Part shown: positions 24,602 to 55,302 of the stretch, piece by piece
How positions within the stretch are numbered: position 1 is the first letter of the stretch
Layout of the letters: each line of letters begins with the position of its first letter
IMG/VR virus record: IMGVR_UViG_2905444465_000001
Location: 25,723-89,722 of that record
Source: a virus
Taxonomy: Duplodnaviria; Caudoviricetes
Reading direction: 5' to 3' (one strand)
DNA: 64,000 nucleotides
Translations under genes and position numbers: made by a program
Notes under the pieces: model-generated
Told to the model about the DNA's origin: nothing
Databases searched by the model: none
Seen by the model: the letters and a program-made list of their open reading frames with translations, nothing else

Positions 24602-25955
24602 TCTTCATCAGCTCCTTTCTTTGCTGTTCTTTTTCGTCTGCCCGTATCGTCTGCAATTTTTCTTTGAGGGTATCACTACGGGCAGCGATGCCCTCGCACA
24701 TTCTGACCTCCTTTCGGATAATTTTCAGCCGTCCCGAAATATCGGAAAGCTCCGCCTTGACCGCTTCCTTTTCTTCACCGCTTATCCTGCGGGATTTGGA
24801 GTAAAGCTCCTTTCGCTTCTGAAGCAGGGCAGACATCTCCGTTTCCAGAGAGCCTTTATATGAACAAAGCTGCTCCGCCGTATCAATGTGATTGTGGCAA
24901 AGCAACCTTGTTTCCAGTGTGATGGCTTCCATCTTCATAAGGTCGTCCTTTAGGAGATAATGAAGCCGTGCATAATTTTGTTTTCTGCCTTTTGGCAGGA
25001 TACCGAGCTTGTAGCAGTAATGGAGATACAGCCCACGCAAGCCGCCCATTTTCTTGGCGTTCTTCAATGAGCCTTTGACCCGATAGACCTTGACCTGCGG
25101 CTGTGGCTCTGAAAAGCTCTGGAATTTGACCGCATAGGAATTTTCGCTGATACGCTCCATAATCCTGTCATTGGTGTATTCCTCTCCAAGCTTATAAAGC
25201 CGCTTGGGTCTTTGCCAGCCCTTGCCGATAATCGTCCAATACTTGCGGTTGGGGTCAAAGTTTATGCGGTAACCCATTTCTGCCAACTGGCGGTCAAAGT
25301 CTTTCAGCGTAAATGATTTGCTGATAGCTTCATCCACCGCTTGTCTGGCAACATTATCCCTCGTGGGTCGCCCCTGCTTTTCGGCTTGGTAAAGGGCGTA
25401 GGGCTTTTTCTTGCCGCTTGGGTGTTCGATGACAGACAAGGCGTACTCACGGCAAAGCTCATCGGAACGCTGACGGAGCAGCCGCAGATTTGCTTTGTTG
25501 TCGTGGTAGTGCATACCGTCAGCAAAAGAAACAGCGTTCACGACAAAGTGATTATGCAGGCAGTCGGTATTTAGGTGGGTGGCAACGATGACTTGAAATC
25601 TGTCGCCCCACATTCGCTCGGCAAGTTTAACGCCGACCTCGTGTGCCTGCTCTGGCGTAACCTCACCGTGCTTGAAGCTCTGGAAACCGTGATAGCAGAC
25701 AATCTCACTCGTATCGTTCCATTGGACTTTGGCAATCATCATTTCATCTCTGGCGGTGGTCGGGTCACAGTTTATGCCTGTGACAAAAAAACGCTGCTCG
25801 GTCTTATCCTTATTAGTAGCGTACTCCATTACATCGACCATCGCCTGCAGGTCGGCTTCGGTGTATTTGGGGTTGGCGGTCTTTTCGGGATTTTCGGCAT
25901 AGTCGATTGGGTGGTCGAGCCTGCCACGCACATCCCATATCTCGCAGACCGCCAT
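24543..25955 (-). CDS. MOB-P type relaxase
   Basis: YAENPEKT, YHGFQSF, ATHLNTDCLHNHFVVN (HxH), downstream of mobC. Confidence 0.9.
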   Translation of the reverse strand: MAVCEIWDVRGRLDHPIDYAENPEKTANPKYTEADLQAMVDVMEYATNKDKTEQRFFVTGINCDPTTARDEMMIAKVQWNDTSEIVCYHGFQSFKHGEVTPEQAHEVGVKLAERMWGDRFQVIVATHLNTDCLHNHFVVNAVSFADGMHYHDNKANLRLLRQRSDELCREYALSVIEHPSGKKKPYALYQAEKQGRPTRDNVARQAVDEAISKSFTLKDFDRQLAEMGYRINFDPNRKYWTIIGKGWQRPKRLYKLGEEYTNDRIMERISENSYAVKFQSFSEPQPQVKVYRVKGSLKNAKKMGGLRGLYLHYCYKLGILPKGRKQNYARLHYLLKDDLMKMEAITLETRLLCHNHIDTAEQLCSYKGSLETEMSALLQKRKELYSKSRRISGEEKEAVKAELSDISGRLKIIRKEVRMCEGIAARSDTLKEKLQTIRADEKEQQRKELMKNEHRRRSGRTNRPNELGGF

Positions 25956-29036: not shown

Positions 29037-29976
29037 TTATCTCTCCCGACTTGCACATTTTCTTTCGGGCTGTTCTTCTGTCTGCTCTGGCTCAGTATCC
29101 ATAACGGAAGTATCTTTTTCATTTAGATTCAGCTCAATGTTAAGAGCGTTCAGCCGTTCTGTTTTTTCTTTCAGCTCATCTTCAAAGGCAAAAGGCTTCT
29201 TGATTTCCTCCTTTGCGGTTTCAAGCTGTACGATAGTTTCCGCCTTTTTGGTCTTGGCAGCTTCCAGTCTAGCAGGGAGCTTTGACAGCTCGTTTTCAAT
29301 TCGGGTCAGATTTCCGAGGGCATCAGCACCTAAATCCACCTTATGCTTTGCCTTTCCGCAGAGGTTCATACAGTAATGGGCATTGACAGTATCATAATAA
29401 ATCTCCATTCGGAAACCTCGGTAGCTGCCGATTTCGGTAGGTGCGGACATCGGATAATCCTTGCAGATTGCAAGGAGCATCTCGCCTGCGTCTGCCTTTT
29501 CGGTGTAGGTCATACCTTTTAGGGTCATCGGGCAGAACTTATCCTCACCCTGCGGCTTGTGCTGCTCGGCAAATGCTGCATCATTTTCATAGCCTGCAAT
29601 GCGTTCCTCATACTCCTTAATGGTCTGGGGATAGTATTTCAGCACCCTGTCCTCAAGGTCGTAATGTTCGGAAAGATAACTCTGCTTTAACACTCGAAGC
29701 TTTGATACCTGTATATCCAAATCCATCTTTTCCTTAAAACGGGCATCGCCTGTGGCAAGCATTTTAACCTCCGCAAAGGACAGGGCAACCTCGTCCACAT
29801 CTTCAGCAGAACGGACAGGGCTTTTGCTCGTCATTATCTGGCTGATAAATTTCTGCTTGCTCTCCACCAACTGATAGAGGTAGGCATCAAAAGTTTGCTC
29901 TGTCACATAACGGTAAACCTCCACCTCTGGGAACATATTGCCCTGCCTTTCAATACGCCCCTGCCTTTGTTCAAGG
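29037..29976 (-). pseudogene. 3' fragment of the interrupted methylase/SNF2 helicase gene
   Basis: DLEQRQGRIERQGN (helicase motif VI) resumes right after the GA at 29977-29978. Confidence 0.9.
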
Positions 29977-31834
29977 TCAGTCGGTCATTTTTTGCGGACA
30001 GTTCAATACATGCCTGTCTGTTTCGCTCCCTGCTCCTGCGTTTGCTCTCGTTTGATTTCTCCCTCTGTATCTTCTTGGCACAAGCAGGACAATACTTCGA
30101 TATGCCAGAGCGGGGAACATATTCAACACCGCACACCGTACAATTCTTAGGCTTTAACGCAGTCCACCGCTTTGTCGGTGTGATATGTAATTCACCGACA
30201 AAGCCGATGAATTTATAATAAATCTTGATTTCCTGCCGCACCATTCCGTCTGTAAGTTTCTCACGTTCCGAAACAAGTATCTTGTCTATAAGTGCGTTTA
30301 TGATGGTTGCGTCCAGTTCCTTAATGCCTTGATAGTTGCGGATTAGGGAGAGGAAATCACGGACACCCTGCGTCTTCTCATAGCTGTCGCTGAGCGTTTC
30401 CGTTACCTCTTTCAGCCTTGCTTCAATTTCAAGCTGTTCTTTCTGGTATTTTCCCGACATCATCTCAAAATTCCGCTCGGTAATACGCTCCATCACCTTA
30501 TCTTCATAGAGTGAGGAAAACAGCCTGTCCAGTTCTGCAAGGCGTTTGTTCAGTTTTCTTTGCTCCTTTTCCAGTGCCTTTGCCTTGCTCTGGTCTGTTT
30601 CCGTGAGCCGCTTTTCAATCGCCCTCACTGCCTTTTCATCATTGACTGCCATATCCGCAAATCGGTTGATGTCGGTGAGGACAGCGTTGAACAAGTCCCT
30701 CGCTTCAATGCTGTGTGCGGTACACATGATATTACCGTATCTGCCATAATTATTGCAGGAATATTGTACGCAGTCGATGATGTCGGGGCGTTTCCTCCTG
30801 TTGGCACTCATAGCCCGCATCGCATAGCCGCAGTCCGCACACTTAATAACGCCTGCAAAGATGTTCTCAAAGCCGCCCTTGTTTTCTGGTAATCTGCGGC
30901 TTGTAATAAGCTGCTGTACGGTATCAAATTCCTCCTGCGTGACTATCCCCTCATGGGTGTCTGGTATCACTTCCCATTCTTCGGGCAGCTTAGAGGGGCG
31001 TTTCTTGCTTTTCATGTTGGCGGCAATCCGCTTGTAGCCTGCAAGGTTTCCCGCATATATCGGGCTTCTTAAAATGCCCCTTACGCTGTTCTCGCTCCAA
31101 ATATAACGGTTCTCCTCATTCTCCTCAAAATACCTCTCATAGCCTGTTGCCCCCTGCTCCGCCGCATAAGCGGCGGGGCGTAAGATATGCTGTTTGTTGA
31201 TGTGCTTGCGGATTTTGGCGATTCCGTTGCCCGCTAACGCAAGGTCAAATATTTCCCTTACCACATGGGCAACTTTGTCATCTATCAGCAGATGGTTGTG
31301 GTCGGCGGGGTCTTTGACGTAACCGTATGGTGCTGTCGTCCCCATGAATTTCCCCTGCTGAAACCTCGCTCGGTACGCCGATTTTATCTTGACCGACACA
31401 TCGGCGGAATACATTTCGTTTAGGATGTTGCGGAAAGGCGTGATGTCCATAGCGGATTTATTGAGCGTGTCCACGCCGTCATTGACCGCTATATACCTCA
31501 CATTATGCTCTGGGAAAAACACTTCCAGATACAGTCCGCAATCAAGATAGTTCCTCCCCAGACGAGATAAATCTTTCGTGATAACGCAGTTTATCAGACC
31601 GCTTTCAATGTCCTTAATCATGTTCTGGAAACTTGGTCTTTGGAAATTTGTACCAGAGTAACCGTCGTCCACATACGTTTTTGCTAAGTGCCATCCCTGC
31701 TTTTTCACATAATCCGTGAGGATGGATTTCTGTGTCGCAATGCTCGCACTCTCGTTATCCGTGCCATCGTCTTTTGACAAGCGGCAGTACATGCCGACTT
31801 CATAAATCTTGTTCTCCATTCTTATTCCTGCCAT
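29903..31834 (-). CDS. Large serine recombinase (TndX/TnpX-like) of the tet element; last 24 codons come from the target gene
   Basis: MYCRLSKDD, TKDLSRLGRN, KCADCG zinc ribbon; ORF crosses the element end at 29977. Confidence 0.92.
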   Translation of the reverse strand: MAGIRMENKIYEVGMYCRLSKDDGTDNESASIATQKSILTDYVKKQGWHLAKTYVDDGYSGTNFQRPSFQNMIKDIESGLINCVITKDLSRLGRNYLDCGLYLEVFFPEHNVRYIAVNDGVDTLNKSAMDITPFRNILNEMYSADVSVKIKSAYRARFQQGKFMGTTAPYGYVKDPADHNHLLIDDKVAHVVREIFDLALAGNGIAKIRKHINKQHILRPAAYAAEQGATGYERYFEENEENRYIWSENSVRGILRSPIYAGNLAGYKRIAANMKSKKRPSKLPEEWEVIPDTHEGIVTQEEFDTVQQLITSRRLPENKGGFENIFAGVIKCADCGYAMRAMSANRRKRPDIIDCVQYSCNNYGRYGNIMCTAHSIEARDLFNAVLTDINRFADMAVNDEKAVRAIEKRLTETDQSKAKALEKEQRKLNKRLAELDRLFSSLYEDKVMERITERNFEMMSGKYQKEQLEIEARLKEVTETLSDSYEKTQGVRDFLSLIRNYQGIKELDATIINALIDKILVSEREKLTDGMVRQEIKIYYKFIGFVGELHITPTKRWTALKPKNCTVCGVEYVPRSGISKYCPACAKKIQREKSNESKRRSRERNRQACIELSAKNDRLTLNKGRGVLKGRAICSQRWRFTVM

Positions 31835-41703: not shown

Positions 41704-42078
41704 TTATGCAAAAATAATTTCCTTTTCCACAATCTCCCTCGCACAAGCCCTTATGTTATTGAGGCATCCTGTCCATTCTAAGGCGTTTTCTGCCTTTAGC
41801 TGTTCCGTTATGCCCTGTGCCTGTTTCATACCCTCTATGAGCCTTTCAAAGCGTTCCTGTGCCTGTCTGTTGATGTCGGCAAGGTAGGCGTTTAGCCTGC
41901 CGCTTGTAAGAAGATTGGTGTATGTAACTTTACGGTACTGTTTTAGATAATCTAAATGCCGTTGCCCCCAGATGCCTATTGCCTGTTCTTCTTCGGCGGG
42001 TACAGTTAAGCACGGTATCAAATAATCCCCTTGCCTTTCGTATTTGCCGCCCAGTTCCTCAAATAATGATTTTGCCAT
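41704..42078 (-). CDS. tnpV: TnpV family protein
   Basis: YERQGDYLIPCL, TNLLTSGRLN, QGITEQLK, NNIRACAREIV. Confidence 0.85.
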   Translation of the reverse strand: MAKSLFEELGGKYERQGDYLIPCLTVPAEEEQAIGIWGQRHLDYLKQYRKVTYTNLLTSGRLNAYLADINRQAQERFERLIEGMKQAQGITEQLKAENALEWTGCLNNIRACAREIVEKEIIFA

Positions 42079-42134
42079 TGTCTGTTACCTCCACATTCTT
42101 TTTTATTTTGAATGTCCGCAAAATCCGTCCTACA

Positions 42135-42806
42135 TCGGAAGGACGCCACGGACAATCAAGGTTATGGATTGCTATGAGCCTGTCCTGCACATTCGTACCT
42201 GCTCCCATCTTAGGAGTAGAGCCGAACAGCACACGGACTTCGCCGCTTCTGACCTTGCCGAACAACTCTTTTTTCTGTGCATCGGTGGTCGCTTCGTGAA
42301 TAAAGCATATCTGCTCCGCAGGGATACCACGGGCTATCAGTTTCTCCCTCATATCGTCATAGACATTGAAAGTACCGTCATTTTTCGGGGTGGACAGGTC
42401 GCAGAACACAAGCTGTGTCGCTTTGGTATCGGCGTGTTCCTCCCAGATACGGTACACATTATCCACGCAGGCATTGACTTTACTGTCTGGGTCATCTGGC
42501 AGCATCGGGTCAATCATTCTCTGGTCAAGAGCCAGTTTCCGTCCGTCATTGGTTATCTTGAGCATATTGTCGATGTTTGGCTCGACAAGCCTTGCCCTGA
42601 CTTTCTCAGCCCGCTTCGCAAGGGAAGCTACCATCTCAGTCTGCATCTCGCTCGGCTTGGTCTTAATATTGTGGTAATTGACTTTTGGCACGGGGAGCTT
42701 TAGCATATCGGCGGTCTGAATATCCGCCACCTCACGGAACATCTGCATCAGCTCTGGCAGGTTATAGAACTTGGCAAACCTCGTCTTGGCTCGGTAATTC
42801 GTGCCT
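42135..42806 (-). pseudogene. Middle fragment of the interrupted methylase/SNF2 helicase gene
   Basis: (E)GTNYRAKTRFAKFYNLPELMQMFREVAD...MGAGTNVQDRL...DCPWRPSD between the two inserted elements. Confidence 0.9.
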
Positions 42807-42821
42807 TCGGGAACGAATTTG

Positions 42822-46657: not shown

Positions 46658-47029
46658 TTATGAATACACAATATCGTTTAATACGATTTCATCTACGCAA
46701 GCTCTGATATTGTTCATCAATCCTATCCATCTCATCATATCCACAGCCTTTAATTGCTCGGTAACGCCTTGCTTTCTTGCCATTTCCTTTATGAGATATT
46801 CAGCCATATCACAAGCCGAAGTGTCAATCTCGGCAAGGTGTTCATATAACTTTCCACTTGTCATCAGAGTGTAATATAAAACTCGCTTGTGTTCTTTCAA
46901 ATATCGCTCTCGCATTCTTCCGTACCTTGAAAGCAAAGGTTTTTCTTCTGCGGTTAAGCAGGGGTAGTAATAGTCCCCGATAAGTTCATATCGGATACCC
47001 GTTCTTTCGTCTGTGATAAATCTTTGCAT
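46658..47029 (-). CDS. tnpV: TnpV (overlaps tnpX 3' end by 76 nt)
   Basis: GDYYYPCLT, LMTSGKL, QGVTEQLK, WIGLMNNIR. Confidence 0.88.
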   Translation of the reverse strand: MQRFITDERTGIRYELIGDYYYPCLTAEEKPLLSRYGRMRERYLKEHKRVLYYTLMTSGKLYEHLAEIDTSACDMAEYLIKEMARKQGVTEQLKAVDMMRWIGLMNNIRACVDEIVLNDIVYS

Positions 47030-49077: not shown

Positions 49078-49150
49078 TCTTTTTACCTCCTTCCTTATGT
49101 ATTTTTCAATTTAGGACAGTTAAATTCATCGTCCTATAAAAGTATATCCC

Positions 49151-52100
49151 TCGGGTGCTAATTCCAGAGCTGTAACCGTTTCTCCAAAGGTAGAAGCCCA
49201 ACTGTCAAAATGCTGCAAACCGTTCTGTGCAAGGGTGTCATACTGCAAGTACCTCTGAACGGAGTACAGCTCAACCATTGAATTGCTAACAGGCGTACCC
49301 GTTGCGAAAACCGTGCCACGGTTGCCCGTGATTTCGTCCAAATAGCGGCACTTCATAAAGAGGTCGCTTGATTTCTGGGCTTCGGTCTGGGCGATACCGC
49401 CTATATTCCGCATCTTGGTGTAGAGGTACAAATTCTTATAAAAATGGCTCTCATCAATGAAAAGCCTGTCAACGCCGAGCTGTTCAAAGTCGATAACCGT
49501 ATCCTTACGCTTGGTGTCGTTGAGTTTTTCGAGCTTCGTCTTGATTGCCTTTCGGGTTTTCATTAGCTGTTTGACCGTGAACTGCTCTCCTTTGGAAGCC
49601 TGCACATCGTCAATGCCACGCTCAATATCATCAAGCTGCTTTTCCAACTGCTCCCTCTGGCGTTCTATGCTCATCGGGATTTTTTCAAACTGCGAATGCC
49701 CGATAATGACTGCGTCATAGTCGCCTGTGGCAATCCTGCCGCAGAACGTCTTGCGGTTTCCCGTTTCAAAATCCCGCTTTGTTGTCACAAGTATATTTGC
49801 ACTCGGATAGAGCCGCAGATACTCGGAAGCCCACTGACCGACAAGATGATTTGGCACAACAAACATGGATTTCTGGCATAAGCCGAGCCATTTGCTTTCC
49901 TGTGCGGCGGCTACCATTTCAAAGGTTTTGCCTGCTCCCACCTTATGGGCAAGGAGCGTATTGCCGCCATAAAGGATATGGGCGATGGCATTGACTTGAT
50001 GGGGTCTTAGTGTGATTTCTGGGCTGATACCTCCGAAAGTGATATGGCTTCCGTCATACTCACGGGGTCGCACAGAGTTAAAAGTGTCGTTGTAATAACG
50101 GACAAGGCGGTTTCGCCGTTCTGGGTCTTTCCATATCCAATCCTGAAACGCCTGCTTGATGGCTTCCTGCTTCGCCTGTGCCGCCGTAGTTTCCTTTGCA
50201 TTGAACACCGCTTTTTTATTGCCGTGTTCGTCATACACATAATCAAAGATACGGGTATCACGCAGATTTAAGGTGTCCTCAATAATGCGATAGGCGGAAG
50301 CTCTTTTCGTACCATAAGTGCTGTCCGCCTTTACATTCCCCATATCGGAGCTTTTATTCTCTATGAACCAGTCTCCGTTTATCGGGGTGTATCGTACCTT
50401 TAATCTGCCTGCGGCATAGCTTGACGGAGTTAAAAGCTCCATCACAAACCGCTGTATATCGTCCTGCGGTATCCAAGTCGCACCCAGACGGACAGAGATT
50501 TCCGCCGCCGAGAGGTCTTTGGGAATGACCTTTTTCAAGGCATCCACATTGACTGCAAGCTCTGGGTCATTCTTCGCAGCAAGCTCCGCAACCGTCAGCT
50601 TGTTTCGGACATTTCCCGACAGATACTCGTCTGCGGCTGCATAGGAAACAGGCTCACAGTTCGGTACTTTGAAGATAACACCTTGTAAATCCTGCACAAG
50701 CTCAGCCTGCGTTTTGCCTGTGAGCTGCTCCATATAAGGCAAATCAACACGGGCTTTCTCCCCGATAGAGAGGGCAAGGGCTTCACTTGCTGTTTCAACC
50801 GAAGTTACTTCTCGGTGGGGCTTGATAGTCCGCTTCGTGAACATATCCGCCTTCCGTTTGAAGTTGCCCTCATCATCAAGCACCTCCAGAGAACATAAAA
50901 GGAAGTAGCTCTCATCTGAAGCAAAAGCAAGATAGTTTCCTCGGCTGTTGATTAGACCGTATTTTGCGGTATAAACATCATACAGACGGTTGAGGTTTTC
51001 CTGCTCGGTGCATATCATTTCCTCTGGGTAATCCTCGGTCTGATACTCAATGAGCTTACGCACACAGTCACGGATTTGGATAAGTCCCTTAATGCGATTT
51101 TCTGCGGTCATCGACACAGAAGCAGGTTGCATACGGTCATTCTCTCGGAAATAAACCCTGCCGTCCACCAGAGTAAAAGAGAAGTTACGCACATTCGGGT
51201 CAGCAGGAACGGAAAGCTCCTGCTCATCGGAGATTTCATCAACCCCATTATCAAGCTCTGGGATTTCGCCGTTTATCCGCTGAACTGCATTGGACAGAAG
51301 CTCGGAAAGTGGTATATCCTTACGGGCTTTACAAACAGGCTCAAAAGTACCAAAGCGTGTGCTTTCCATCTTTATTTCGCCCAACACCATTTCGGGGTGT
51401 TCGACAAAATATCTGTTCATCGTAATACCGTTTTCGTCCGTATCAAGGTGTACCCAGTCTGGCTCTATATCCATCACTCGGTCACGCTTTTGCAGGATAA
51501 GAATATCGCTCGTGACCTCCGTGCCTGCGTTTGCTTTAAAGGTGTTGTCTGGCAGTCGGATAGCACCTAAAAGCTCGGCTCTCTGGGCAATATACTTGCG
51601 TACCTCTGGGCTTGCTTTATCCATCGTACCCTTTGAGGTGATGAACATCACAACGCCGCCGGCACGGACTTTATCCAGAGCCTTTGCGAAAAAGTAGTCG
51701 TGTATGAGGAACTTCTGGGCGTTGTATCGGCTGTCATTGACCCTTATCTCCCCAAAAGGCACATTGCCGAGGACTACATCAAAATGGTCGTCTGGGAGAT
51801 TCGTTTTCTCAAAGCCCTCAATGGCAATGTTCGCTTTTGGGTAGAGCTGCTTTGCAAGCCTGCCTGTGAGAGAGTCGATTTCCACGCCGTGGAGCTTGCT
51901 GTTTTGCATACTTTCGGGAAGCAGACCAAAGAAATTGCCTGTCCCGCAGGACGGCTCCAAGATATTTCCCTGTGAAAAGCCCAGGCGGTCAAGTGCGTCA
52001 TACATCGCCTTGATAACAACAGGCGGCGTATAAAAAGCGGTCAGCGTTGACTCCATAGCGGCACGGTATTCCTCTGGGGATAGGCTGGCATATAGCTCCT

Positions 52101-55100
52101 TAAATTCCTCCGCCCACGCTGCATTGTGTTCATCAAATGCCATAGAAAGACCGCCCCAACCGACATACCGAGACAGGACTTCCTGTTCTTTGGGTGTGGC
52201 AAGGCGGTTTTCTATTTCAAGCTCGTGCAGCAGGTTGATTGCCGCCATATTGTTACGGAACTTTTCTTTTGCTCCGCCGACACCGATGGCGTCATCGGTA
52301 ATACGGAAATTATGACGGTCTGTGGCAGGAGCTTCTGTTTTTTCTTCGGGTGGTAATTCGGTTTTTTCCTGTTCCAATAGCTTTTGGATATATTCGATTT
52401 TCTCCACTCGGTTTATCGGAAAACCCACATTGTTCTGGAATGTGATGTCACGCAGGGACACATCGCCGCTGATTTTCCCGATGCTCTCAATAAGATATTT
52501 ACGGTTGTCTATGATGATTTCCCTGCCTATGAGGTCGTCTGTGGATTGCTCCGTTTCAATGGCAGGAGCTTCTGAGCCATTCAGTTTATCGGCATACACC
52601 TGTGGTTTTTCTTCGGCTTCCTCGGCTGTCCTGTACCAATCACTTTCGGTAGCCATAATCTCATCAAGGAGCTTCTCGTCCTCTTGGGTCAGCTCGGTGT
52701 GCTGTTCCAAGAATGGGATAAACTCATCTCTGCCACGGAGCAAGCTTTCTCGGTCATCTCCATATAGCTGTTCGCCCTTTGGCGATAAGGCATAATCGTA
52801 AAAATTCTTAATGTGGGCAATTAAATCGCCCTCACCATCGCCAATATCAAACCGCCCTTCATAGTTAAATTCCTCGCCGCCGATAACAGCCTTGATAACA
52901 AAATCTGTCTTGTGATACCACCCGATATTTTTATCGCCCTCACGCTCACGGTGCTGTTTCTCGTCCAAAATACCAAGCAACTTATTACCCAGAGCAAAGC
53001 TCAAATCCGTATAGCGGTCATTAAGCTGTCTGTCATAAAAGGCAGGGTGTTCGGAAAAACCGATAGAAAACTGTATTCCGTCCTGCTTTTTCTCGGACGG
53101 TGCTTCTGTCCTCTGTTTCTCGGTTACGACCACCTTCAGATGGTCGTTTGCAGGATTTTCCGTTAGCTTTTCTTCAAAGTCGGCTCGGATGTATTCCTGC
53201 CCCAAGATAGGGAACTCGGCATTTTGCAGATAGACCTTTTCCTCGGTAAGTGTTGCAATCTCATATTTATCCGCACCGATATACACCACATCGCTCTCAT
53301 TGTAGAGGTAGCAAAGTGGGTACAGCTCCCTTAATTCCTCGGTAAACTTCCACCCATTACTACGGCTGAAAACTGAGGTCGTTTTCCATTGTACCTGTGC
53401 AAGAAAGTCTATGAGCTGTTGAACAGTTGAGGGGTCGGATAAGTGCTGTTCCATTTGCTCGGCGGTAACATCTGCAAGGTCGCCTCGTCCCACAACAGAT
53501 AACAGGTCTTTTTCGTACCTGTCCAAGTCACGGATAAAGTCAGATAGCCGCAAAGCAAGGGTATCCCGTTTGTCGGCAAGCGGCAAGTCACGGTGGGCGT
53601 CAATAAAACGCTGCCTTGCTATTTTCCTCTGGGTGTCAATCTCATATTGGGGAGCTGACACGCTCTCCAGATAATCGGCATAATGGTCTTTTTCTTTCGG
53701 ATTAAGATAGCGGTTATCCTTAATCAGCTCACGCAGACGCTTTTCAACCTGTGACCATTTCAACACAAGGTCGTGATTGGTATAAGTGCCGTTTCGGTCA
53801 ATGGCAAGACCTTTGCTGTCATGCCAAGAATGACCGCTGAAACCATCGGGGAAGATGTGCGTACCGCCGCCCGTTCCATACTCATTTTTAAGGAATTCAA
53901 TATTTTTCTGTCTGTCCTCGCCCTTTTGGAATTGGCGGTAGATGCGGTATTTTCCGTCCGCAACGCCACTGCCTTTCTGAAGCACGGAGTCAATATCTTC
54001 TTTGGAAATAGCAAAAGCAGAGGCATTTTCGTCCTCTGCTTTTGCTATCATTTCGATTTGTTCATCTACGGTTGGAAGATTGACCCTAACCTCATCCTCT
54101 TTGGCAACGCTTACTTGTAAATCAGTTCGGTCAGTATCACTTCCTCCGCTTGGCTGCGGATGTTGTTCATCAGTCCGACCCACTGCATCGGTGCTTTCTC
54201 TTTCAGTTCCTCTGTCACGCCCTGCTCGGCTGAGAGCTGCTTCGTCAGAAGCTCCAAACTCTGGAGTGCTGTCTGCTCTACCTCGTGCAGATGCCCGTTC
54301 AGCCTGCCCGATGTCAGCAGATTGAGATAGGTCACTCGCTTGTGCTTCTCCAGATAATCCCTGTGCATCAAAGCGTACCTGCCAAGCGGAAGCTCTGGCT
54401 CTGTCGGTAATGTTAGGTCGGGAATAAGATAATCCCCCTGTCTGCTGTAAGTGATTTTGCTCATTGTATTCGCTCCTTTCGGGTTGTTGTCTGCCTTTAT
54501 CATACTGAGCCTGCGTTCTTTGTGCAAAGGTGCGATTCTGGTCTTTTTCCGCCATTTGCACATTTCGGATAGACTGTGAGATTTCCCGTAACGCCATTTC
54601 CGCAATATCGCTCGTGGCAACGCCGATGGCGTTTATCGTTGCAGGGGTATTGAAATTTACAATATCCGCAAAATCATCACGGTCAAAAAACTCATTCGTA
54701 TCCAGACCGCAGCGGCTGATCAGCATAAAAGCAACGCTGTTTGCTGCCAGCCGCCTGTAAATGACTTCTATATTAAAGTCGTCCAGTTCTTCCAAAAAGC
54801 TGTCTTTCGTGCAGTCCTTTAACTGAGAAAAATAGTCTTGCAGATTGTCCTCCACGGCGTTCTTTGCCGTTTCCATTAGGGCAGAAGCAAGGTCAGTGCT
54901 TTCCACATCTCCAAACCTGTCCGAGAGCCTTTCCATAACAGCCTGCTCGTATCGCTCATCCATCTGCCATATCGGAACAGGGCGGCTGCCATAATAGCCC
55001 TCGTGGGTGTCGGACACATCAAAATAGTATTTCAGCGTATTCCTGCGACCTTTCGGGTCAAATACGGCAATACCCTTGCTGTCCTTATTGACCCAACGCT

Positions 55101-55302
55101 TGAACTGCCTGTTCCAAGTTTCGAGCTTCGCAACGGCGACAGCATCGGGGCGTTGGGCGTATATTAAAAGCTGTTCGTCATAACGGCATTTATAGTTGCG
55201 GCAGGCAGAGGACAGAAAGCCCTGCCACGCCTGCGGATTTTTTGCAACCGCAACGCCTGTACGCCGATACAGCTCTGTGATTAGCTGATACTTCGCAGCC
55301 AT
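49151..55302 (-). pseudogene. 5' part of giant polyvalent protein (ArdC-N-like, N6-adenine methylase, SNF2 helicase), truncated by the Tn4451-like insertion
   Basis: ILEPSCGTG and GNVPF methylase motifs, HKVGAGKT and FIDESH helicase motifs; reads into the transposon and stops at 49126. Confidence 0.9.
54111..54464 (-). CDS. TnpV-family ORF overprinted in the +1 frame of the helicase gene
   Basis: 117 aa MSKITYSRQGDYLIPDL...NLLTSGRLN...QGVTEELK...WVGLMNNIR; AAAGGAG RBS about 8 nt upstream. Confidence 0.8.
   Translation of the reverse strand: MSKITYSRQGDYLIPDLTLPTEPELPLGRYALMHRDYLEKHKRVTYLNLLTSGRLNGHLHEVEQTALQSLELLTKQLSAEQGVTEELKEKAPMQWVGLMNNIRSQAEEVILTELIYK

Follow-up and report, generated by a model that had tools for sequence, protein, structure and literature searches.

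A tnpV gene nested out of frame in the linker-coding segment of a giant polyvalent gene of a Clostridial integrative conjugative element

The 64,000 nucleotides of DNA analyzed here, hereafter the window, are positions 25,723 to 89,722 of IMG/VR record IMGVR_UViG_2905444465_000001 and, though filed as a virus in that database, constitute a Clostridial integrative conjugative element (ICE). The minus strand of this element carries a giant gene of the polyvalent class, and entirely within the giant open reading frame (ORF), on the same strand but in a different frame, lies a complete gene for TnpV, a small protein of mobile elements. The features on which the argument turns are as follows.

54111 to 54464, minus strand (read from 54464 to 54111): nested tnpV gene, 117 codons and a stop, defined by its ORF, its translation, its match to PF14198 and purifying selection in the TnpV frame.
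54473 to 54480, minus strand: Shine-Dalgarno (SD) sequence GAAAGGAG, read from the sequence and followed by an 8-nt spacer and the tnpV ATG.
49126 to 55302, minus strand: first piece of the giant polyvalent ORF (amino acids 1-2055 of an intact protein of 2587 amino acids), defined by its ORF, a domain search and comparison with an intact relative.
54483 to 55302, minus strand: ArdC-N-like N-terminal domain of the giant protein, amino acids 1-273, tentatively assigned from an AlphaFold2 (AF2) model, Foldseek and weak PF08401 matches of some homologues.
54111 to 54465, minus strand: dual-coding stretch, read in the giant protein as a linker of approximately amino acids 280-397 and recognized by translation, composition, low conservation and the presence of 0 stops.

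The giant ORF extends from 55302 to 49126 (2058 codons), with the part homologous to amino acids 1-2055 at 55302-49138, and the nested gene, which covers residues ~280-397 of the giant protein, is offset from it by +1, as (55302-54464) mod 3 = 1. An earlier reading of this DNA, the original prediction, had described a 117-amino acid ORF in the +1 frame of the giant ORF with an SD sequence about 8 nt before its ATG, and all of these elements are present, but on the minus strand; a plus-strand reading of 54111-54464 was rejected, its translation being full of stops. A 169-codon ORF beginning at a TTG at 54620 was also considered and rejected as the start of tnpV, because a switch in the phase of sequence diversity (described below) and the conserved SD-ATG arrangement both place the start at 54464. 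The product of the nested gene is a full-length TnpV protein, matching PF14198 over profile positions 1-111 of 111 (E 4.8e-42; 142.9 bits against a curated cut-off of 27), and its predicted similarity to the two free-standing TnpV proteins of the window was confirmed by tblastn (46% and 45% identity), with both of the latter also belonging to PF14198. Translation of the giant frame across the same bases likewise agrees with the polar, low-complexity linker described previously, being rich in G, D, R, E and S and disordered.

Selection on the TnpV reading was examined in close relatives identified by a scan of one genome per species, which yielded 177 loci; among the best 80 of these 177 (TnpV 84-99% identical), both frames are open in nearly all. 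Diversity at each codon position was computed from 63 unique sequences of this set aligned with MAFFT. In the flanks of tnpV, diversity peaks at position 3 of the big frame (0.35-0.5, versus 0.05-0.25 at positions 1 and 2). Inside tnpV, big-frame position 3, which is TnpV position 2, is nearly invariant (0.02-0.10), and the bulk of the variation moves to TnpV position 3. This switch is a shift of one base and coincides with the ATG and the stop codon of tnpV. Parsimony counts of mutation classes on a tree, expressed as observed over expected changes, gave a corresponding result. Within the overlap, changes that are silent in TnpV and nonsilent in the big frame were enriched (2.53), while those nonsilent in TnpV and silent in the big frame were depleted (0.53); both flanks mirrored this pattern, with values of 0.57-0.61 and 2.36-2.37, respectively. 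Inside the overlap, the TnpV frame is therefore read by selection no less strictly than the big frame is in other parts of the gene, and purifying selection on TnpV within the overlap is as strong as big-frame selection outside it.

The big frame is nevertheless kept open across tnpV, where it contains 0 stops versus 7.3 expected when the TnpV protein is recoded synonymously with the codon usage of the gene itself. The probability of an open big frame is 5e-5 by this recoding, and 0.0026 when the gene's own synonymous codons are permuted, the third positions of nested tnpV being G-rich and T-poor. The two free-standing tnpV genes of the window contain 6 (47029 to 46658) and 4 (42078 to 41704) stops in the same frame. 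As a wider control, 60 TnpV genes from other genomes, none of them adjoining an ArdC-like domain, were examined; all 60 have 3-20 stops in the corresponding frame and show no stop avoidance (median 8 observed, 8.8 expected), whereas in 48 of 60 embedded tnpV genes the own-codon permutation gave P<0.05 for an open big frame. Changes that would create a stop in the big frame were depleted about 10-fold in the overlap (observed/expected 0.06-0.11). Stop avoidance together with constraint on the TnpV frame therefore indicates that both readings are maintained, although the big reading in the overlap is selected for little beyond a lack of stops. The phase switch, the mutation classes and the avoidance of stops thus uphold the earlier proposal of selection on TnpV within a large ORF that does no more than remain open here.

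The dual-coding arrangement is also old. The comparison as a whole took in more than 100 related elements. A census was conducted by searching 300 Clostridia genomes with the ArdC-like domain and fetching 60 loci, in which this domain ranges from 81% down to 22% identity. In 52 of the 60, a TnpV homologue was found by tblastn just after the ArdC-like domain, always offset by +1 and within an open big frame, and a profile built from 59 TnpV proteins added 2-3 more, giving approximately 55 of 60 loci with an embedded TnpV. The same site, the same +1 offset and the SD-ATG arrangement are kept even where the ArdC-like domain is only ~24% identical. Frequent stops in the TnpV frame of homologous big genes would have refuted the original prediction; this refutation fails, since such a high proportion of homologues retain a TnpV there. 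GAAAGGAG is invariant among close-clade relatives of the nested gene, a recognizable SD sequence (GAAAGGAG, GAAAGGAC or AAGGAGG) is found in most homologues down to ~25-35% identity of the N-terminal domain, and the canonical spacing of 8-9 nt to the ATG is conserved. TnpV identity tracks that of the ArdC-like domain (Spearman 0.80); in the linker reading of these bases conservation is lower (0.17-0.32 at depth). The family to which the embedded copies belong is larger, with more than 200 PF14198 matches in 105 of the 300 genomes, and from these counts and the census the embedded share of TnpV in this sample is roughly one quarter.

The loci of the census that lack an embedded TnpV are contig ends, one decayed gene and one in which an out-of-frame tnpV of the free-standing tet type follows the domain. 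In the latter (L132, G002:C2:2909304-2913222), the ArdC-like domain is 81% identical to that of the window and is directly followed by a tnpV that is 79% identical to the window copy at 42078 to 41704 and lies in a different frame, with the big frame closed; L132 looks like a breakpoint or a recombinant in which the embedded tnpV was replaced by an inserted element. At another locus (L133 / L021, G002:C2:3488230-3492145), an insertion of ~1.8 kb bearing a 400-amino acid ORF on the opposite strand, resembling an insertion sequence (IS), lies between the ArdC-like domain and tnpV and breaks the giant gene, and tnpV retains its SD, its ATG and its full ORF. Both loci are from Sporofaciens musculi (G002), whose genome contains 14 matches to the ArdC-like domain, of which at least 8 lie in large ORFs that contain a nested TnpV; this shows a heavy accumulation of related ICEs in a single host.

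These results very probably reflect a genuine same-strand nested gene pair sharing a dual-coding segment. The giant gene encodes a polyvalent protein whose ArdC-like DNA-binding header is followed by a disordered linker and then by LPD25, an N6-adenine methylase and an SNF2 helicase, and the ~350 bases that specify the linker double as a complete gene for the 117-residue TnpV, one base downstream in phase. TnpV would be made by independent initiation at its own GAAAGGAG-N8-ATG, from the long mRNA or from a shorter transcript starting at a conserved -10-like element ~35 nt upstream, and the giant protein would be made as one chain through the linker. The constraints imposed by TnpV could be tolerated because the linker need presumably be only open, polar and flexible.

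Three other explanations were weighed. The locus might instead comprise three separate genes, namely a short ArdC-like gene, tnpV and a methylase-helicase gene starting downstream, with the open big frame an accident of composition. This is how gene callers tend to divide it: in eight public contigs in which tnpV was called, the giant gene was started 60-2100 nt downstream and the 280 ArdC-like codons were left uncalled. The poor conservation and low complexity of the linker reading are also in keeping with this division. Yet the N-terminal 280 codons are under clear purifying selection in the big frame, with no stop before the remainder of the gene. Moreover, an accident of composition is hard to reconcile with 0 big-frame stops where 7.3 are expected (P 5e-5), with an open frame that remains significant in 48 of 60 embedded genes even when their own codons are used, with stops in all 60 of the free-standing genes, or with the ~10-fold depletion of stop-creating changes, and this explanation appears very improbable.

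Alternatively, TnpV could be synthesized only as the tail of a fusion with the ArdC-like domain, through programmed +1 frameshifting close to the SD-like GAAAGGAG. SD-like elements inside an ORF can stimulate frameshifting, as in prfB, and TnpV always follows directly after the ArdC-like domain at an offset of +1. Against this, an ATG is conserved at the canonical 8-9 nt from the SD; furthermore, free-standing homologues begin at the equivalent Met or a few residues upstream, and tnpV of L133 retains both its SD and its ATG after the IS-like insertion just upstream. Frameshifting is considered very improbable. The notion that tnpV is an untranslated relic, swallowed by a gene fusion and still recognizable though no longer expressed, is scarcely credible. 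The many free-standing TnpV homologues make fusion over a pre-existing gene a plausible origin, but a relic would be expected to decay, and here the ORF, SD and ATG are still present where the host domain has fallen to ~24% identity, the TnpV reading filters substitutions, and the pace of TnpV divergence matches, and does not exceed, that of the N-terminal domain.

A nested pair with two translated products thus remains the preferred reading, and several points weigh against parts of it. Translation of either frame is a prediction from sequence comparison. The giant gene is cut downstream in this window, though the overlap and the first 2055 codons are intact. The function proposed for TnpV (discussed below) finds no backing in any fold or family match. 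Finally, the candidate promoter consists of a consensus match and its conservation, and TATGAT/TATAAT also codes for Tyr-Asp/Asn in the big frame.

54499 to 54504, minus strand: -10-like hexamer TATGAT, 35-40 nt before the tnpV ATG, a candidate internal promoter.

This hexamer was found in a consensus scan (TTTGCA-18-TATGAT) and is invariant among the 63 relatives, third codon positions included, inside an otherwise highly variable stretch. Among the embedded loci, 37 of 60 have a hexamer with at least 5 of 6 matching positions 20-70 nt upstream of the nested ATG. At the equivalent sites of L092-L139, TATGAT/TATAAT lies 35-60 nt upstream of the nested ATG with all six bases conserved, and its surroundings are the otherwise variable tail of the ArdC-like domain. 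The conservation of TATGAT/TATAAT suggests a possible internal promoter for tnpV. No terminator-like sites were found on the minus strand between 54111 and 53800, after tnpV.

The first piece of the giant ORF encodes, in order, the ArdC-like N-terminal domain, the linker, LPD25, an N6 methylase (N6_Mtase/Eco57I) and the N-terminal part of SNF2/ResIII. The ArdC-like domain was modelled confidently by AF2, with a predicted local distance difference test score (pLDDT) of 92, and the top three Foldseek matches in PDB were all ArdC of R388. The best of these was 6i89 (probability 0.99, E 0.028); the three matches are weak by E (0.03-0.1) and template modelling (TM) score (0.32-0.41), despite probabilities of 0.89-0.99. 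Matches to PF08401 were also weak, occurring in 4 of 30 homologues of the domain (best E 0.0017). The remainder of the giant gene was located by tblastn and blastn against an intact locus, L082.

42086 to 42820, minus strand: second piece of the giant gene, amino acids 2047-2295.
29040 to 29984, minus strand: third piece of the giant gene, amino acids 2273-2587.

A mobilizable element resembling Tn4451 (~49148-42811) separates the first and second pieces, and a ~12-kb element carrying tnpV, a tet gene and a major facilitator superfamily (MFS) gene (~42135-29978) separates the second and third; both are inserted in the SNF2 part of the gene. Because the gene is disrupted downstream, the full-length polyvalent protein is not made from this window. 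The giant frame had been described as uninterrupted, which is correct across tnpV and incorrect for the gene as a whole, cut as it is by these two insertions. With several unrelated effector domains in one chain and a neighbourhood of type IV secretion system (T4SS) and relaxase genes, the giant gene fits the polyvalent class.

The two inserted elements carry the free-standing tnpV copies of the window.

46658 to 47029, minus strand: free-standing tnpV of the Tn4451-like element (PF14198; 6 stops in the -1 frame).
41704 to 42078, minus strand: free-standing tnpV at the left edge of the tet-carrying element (PF14198; 4 stops in the -1 frame).

In tblastn searches, the nested TnpV matched the copy of the Tn4451-like element at 46996-46664 (45% identity, E 9e-30) and that of the tet element at 42042-41710 (46% identity, E 7e-34), so that all three nested elements carry a TnpV, as originally stated; the essential shared role that was proposed on this ground is conjectural. 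The Tn4451-like element contains tnpX, tnpV, catP, tnpY and a Mob_Pre relaxase gene. The previously noted overlap of the 3' end of tnpX with tnpV is found here too, where tnpX (49077 to 46954) and its tnpV (47029 to 46658) share 76 nt. At the start of the ~12-kb element are tnpV, a tet gene of the ribosomal-protection type and an MFS pump gene, and at its end is a gene for a TnpX-like recombinase (31834 to 29903); were this element circularized, the recombinase gene would directly precede tnpV, like tnpX in Tn4451. Upstream of free-standing tnpV copies elsewhere, a TnpX-like recombinase was found in 5 of 20 and a Mob_Pre relaxase in 6 of 20, while other copies lie at the extreme edge of an element, adjoining host genes. 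A search of a plasmid collection returned two distant, unannotated Subdoligranulum records and no more.

The other minus-strand genes of the window include those for ParA, ParB, an SpaA/thioester adhesin, DUF6664, a Toprim protein and a relaxase, which accompany the giant gene, as well as VirD4, a pilin, VirB4, a lysozyme/CHAP protein and serine recombinases. The whole record is 89.7 kb, the window being 25723-89722 of it, and its ICE genes are those for relaxase, VirD4, VirB4, pilin, ParAB and serine recombinases; the ORFs scanned in the record included none recognized as coding for phage structural proteins.

The nested TnpV, at 117 amino acids and encoded on a Firmicutes mobile element, falls within the range of small proteins of ~110-130 amino acids. 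Proteins of the family are mildly acidic (median pI 5.7), and their near-invariant residues are few, namely Y6, P15, L59, K88, W95 and E108, with no catalytic signature. The structure model (pLDDT 90) consists of a beta-hairpin followed by a helical bundle. Searches with the TnpV sequence gave a single match in PDB, at E 0.62, no match in NCBIfam, no usable match in the ESM Atlas, and in PHROGs a family of unknown function and nothing else. With the model, the best Foldseek match in PDB had E 2.1, and the best Z of a wide VIA-align search was 5.6, in a range common for helical models. No excisionase (Xis) or recombination directionality factor (RDF) was present among the PDB sequence or fold matches of TnpV. 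An Xis-like role has been postulated for TnpV of Tn4451/Tn4453 and Tn6104-Tn6106, with its activity untested (PMC3158075). It is tentatively proposed, with low confidence, that TnpV binds a partner or otherwise assists when conjugative and mobilizable elements are transferred or become established, and that it might do so alongside the anti-restriction header, the relaxase or the serine recombinase.

The history of the nesting was addressed with a TnpV tree of 124 columns, unrooted and built without an outgroup. Embedded and free states are strongly clustered but interleaved on this tree, requiring 7 changes, versus ~42 for shuffled labels, and at least 3 of the 7 are forced by well-supported branches. 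A single embedded clade was rejected by the approximately unbiased (AU) test (p 0.019), which was applied to 85 rows after near-duplicates and the longest branches were left out. Because all embedded copies share the same site and frame, and because opening of a 117-codon alternative frame is improbable (P(open) 1e-2 to 1e-5), tnpV is more likely to have escaped from the giant gene several times than to have become embedded in it several times. The term "overprinted", as applied in the original prediction, implies a direction of origin, tnpV first or linker first, that goes beyond what this short, unrooted tree can show. A more speculative scenario, which is rather doubtful, is that embedding took place once and the embedded site is the old home of TnpV, from which free copies of the Tn4451 type repeatedly escaped; TnpV might then partner the ArdC-like header in the first minutes just after DNA entry, in anti-defence or establishment, and nesting would lock its expression to that of the header.

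Nested gene pairs with some of these properties are known. In Bacillus subtilis, comS (46 codons) is nested out of frame in srfAB and is confined to a narrow lineage, and it is not known to have free-standing relatives. The likeness is that comS, too, is a short but complete gene that has a ribosome-binding site of its own and is read from the strand of its giant multidomain host gene, though in another frame; nested tnpV differs in its 117 codons, its membership of a broad family, its conservation to ~24% identity of the host domain and the host reading, which is a disordered interdomain linker. The Rz/Rz1 spanin genes of the phage lambda lysis cassette, the two products of which form one complex, are likewise a pair on a mobile element in which one gene is contained in the other at an offset of +1. 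Both Rz/Rz1 products are functional; a comparable partnership between TnpV and the giant protein would be conjectural. The nesting of tnpV is an unusually well-supported addition to such pairs.

Among mobile elements, TnpV of Tn4451/Tn4453 and Tn6104-Tn6106 belongs to the same family as the nested one, is similar in length and is likewise found on mobile elements of Clostridia. The Tn4451-type genes are free-standing, with no more than an overlap with the 3' end of tnpX, and have 3-20 stops in the -1 frame; in contrast, the nested tnpV lies wholly inside another gene and its -1 frame is kept open. ArdC-N-headed polyvalent proteins of conjugative elements have been described as a class, with which the host gene shares LPD25, the methylase-SNF2 dyad, the T4SS/relaxase neighbourhood and, going by weak matches, probably the ArdC-type header; in the paper that describes the class (Iyer et al., 2017, PMC5512222), neither TnpV nor any overlapping or alternative frame is mentioned. 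In Streptococcus suis ICEs, the snf2 gene harbours TnpV-carrying integrative mobilizable elements (IMEs) (PMC9815147), much as two TnpV-carrying elements occupy the SNF2 part of the giant gene here, although that work concerns inserted elements rather than a tnpV inside the ICE's own giant gene. No description of tnpV nested inside a giant gene was found in the accessible portions of the literature mentioning TnpV, and nothing relevant was found in literature on overprinting or overlapping genes in ICEs.

Claims of long out-of-frame overlaps in bacteria are common, but few have good support. The 350-base tnpV overlap, backed by selection specific to phase, by the avoidance of stops and by its persistence in very divergent elements, can therefore be used as a benchmark and as test material for gene finders that allow for overlaps. 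With present callers, either tnpV is missed or the giant gene is shortened at the cost of its ArdC-like header. The claim that the nested gene is hidden from standard annotation is half right: public sets do contain exactly this protein, and one member of its cluster bears the name 'TnpV protein' (WP_117650039.1), but where tnpV is called it is the 280 ArdC-like codons of the giant gene that go uncalled. Such miscalling distorts domain catalogues of the polyvalent proteins of ICEs from gut Clostridia, elements that carry resistance cargo, here catP and tet. The TnpV family is present in about a third of the sampled Clostridia genomes (105 of 300), and its nesting offers a handle on its role. 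Mutations exist that alter TnpV and are silent in the big frame, and, because of these separation-of-function changes and the fixed linkage of tnpV to an anti-restriction header, the role of TnpV is directly testable.

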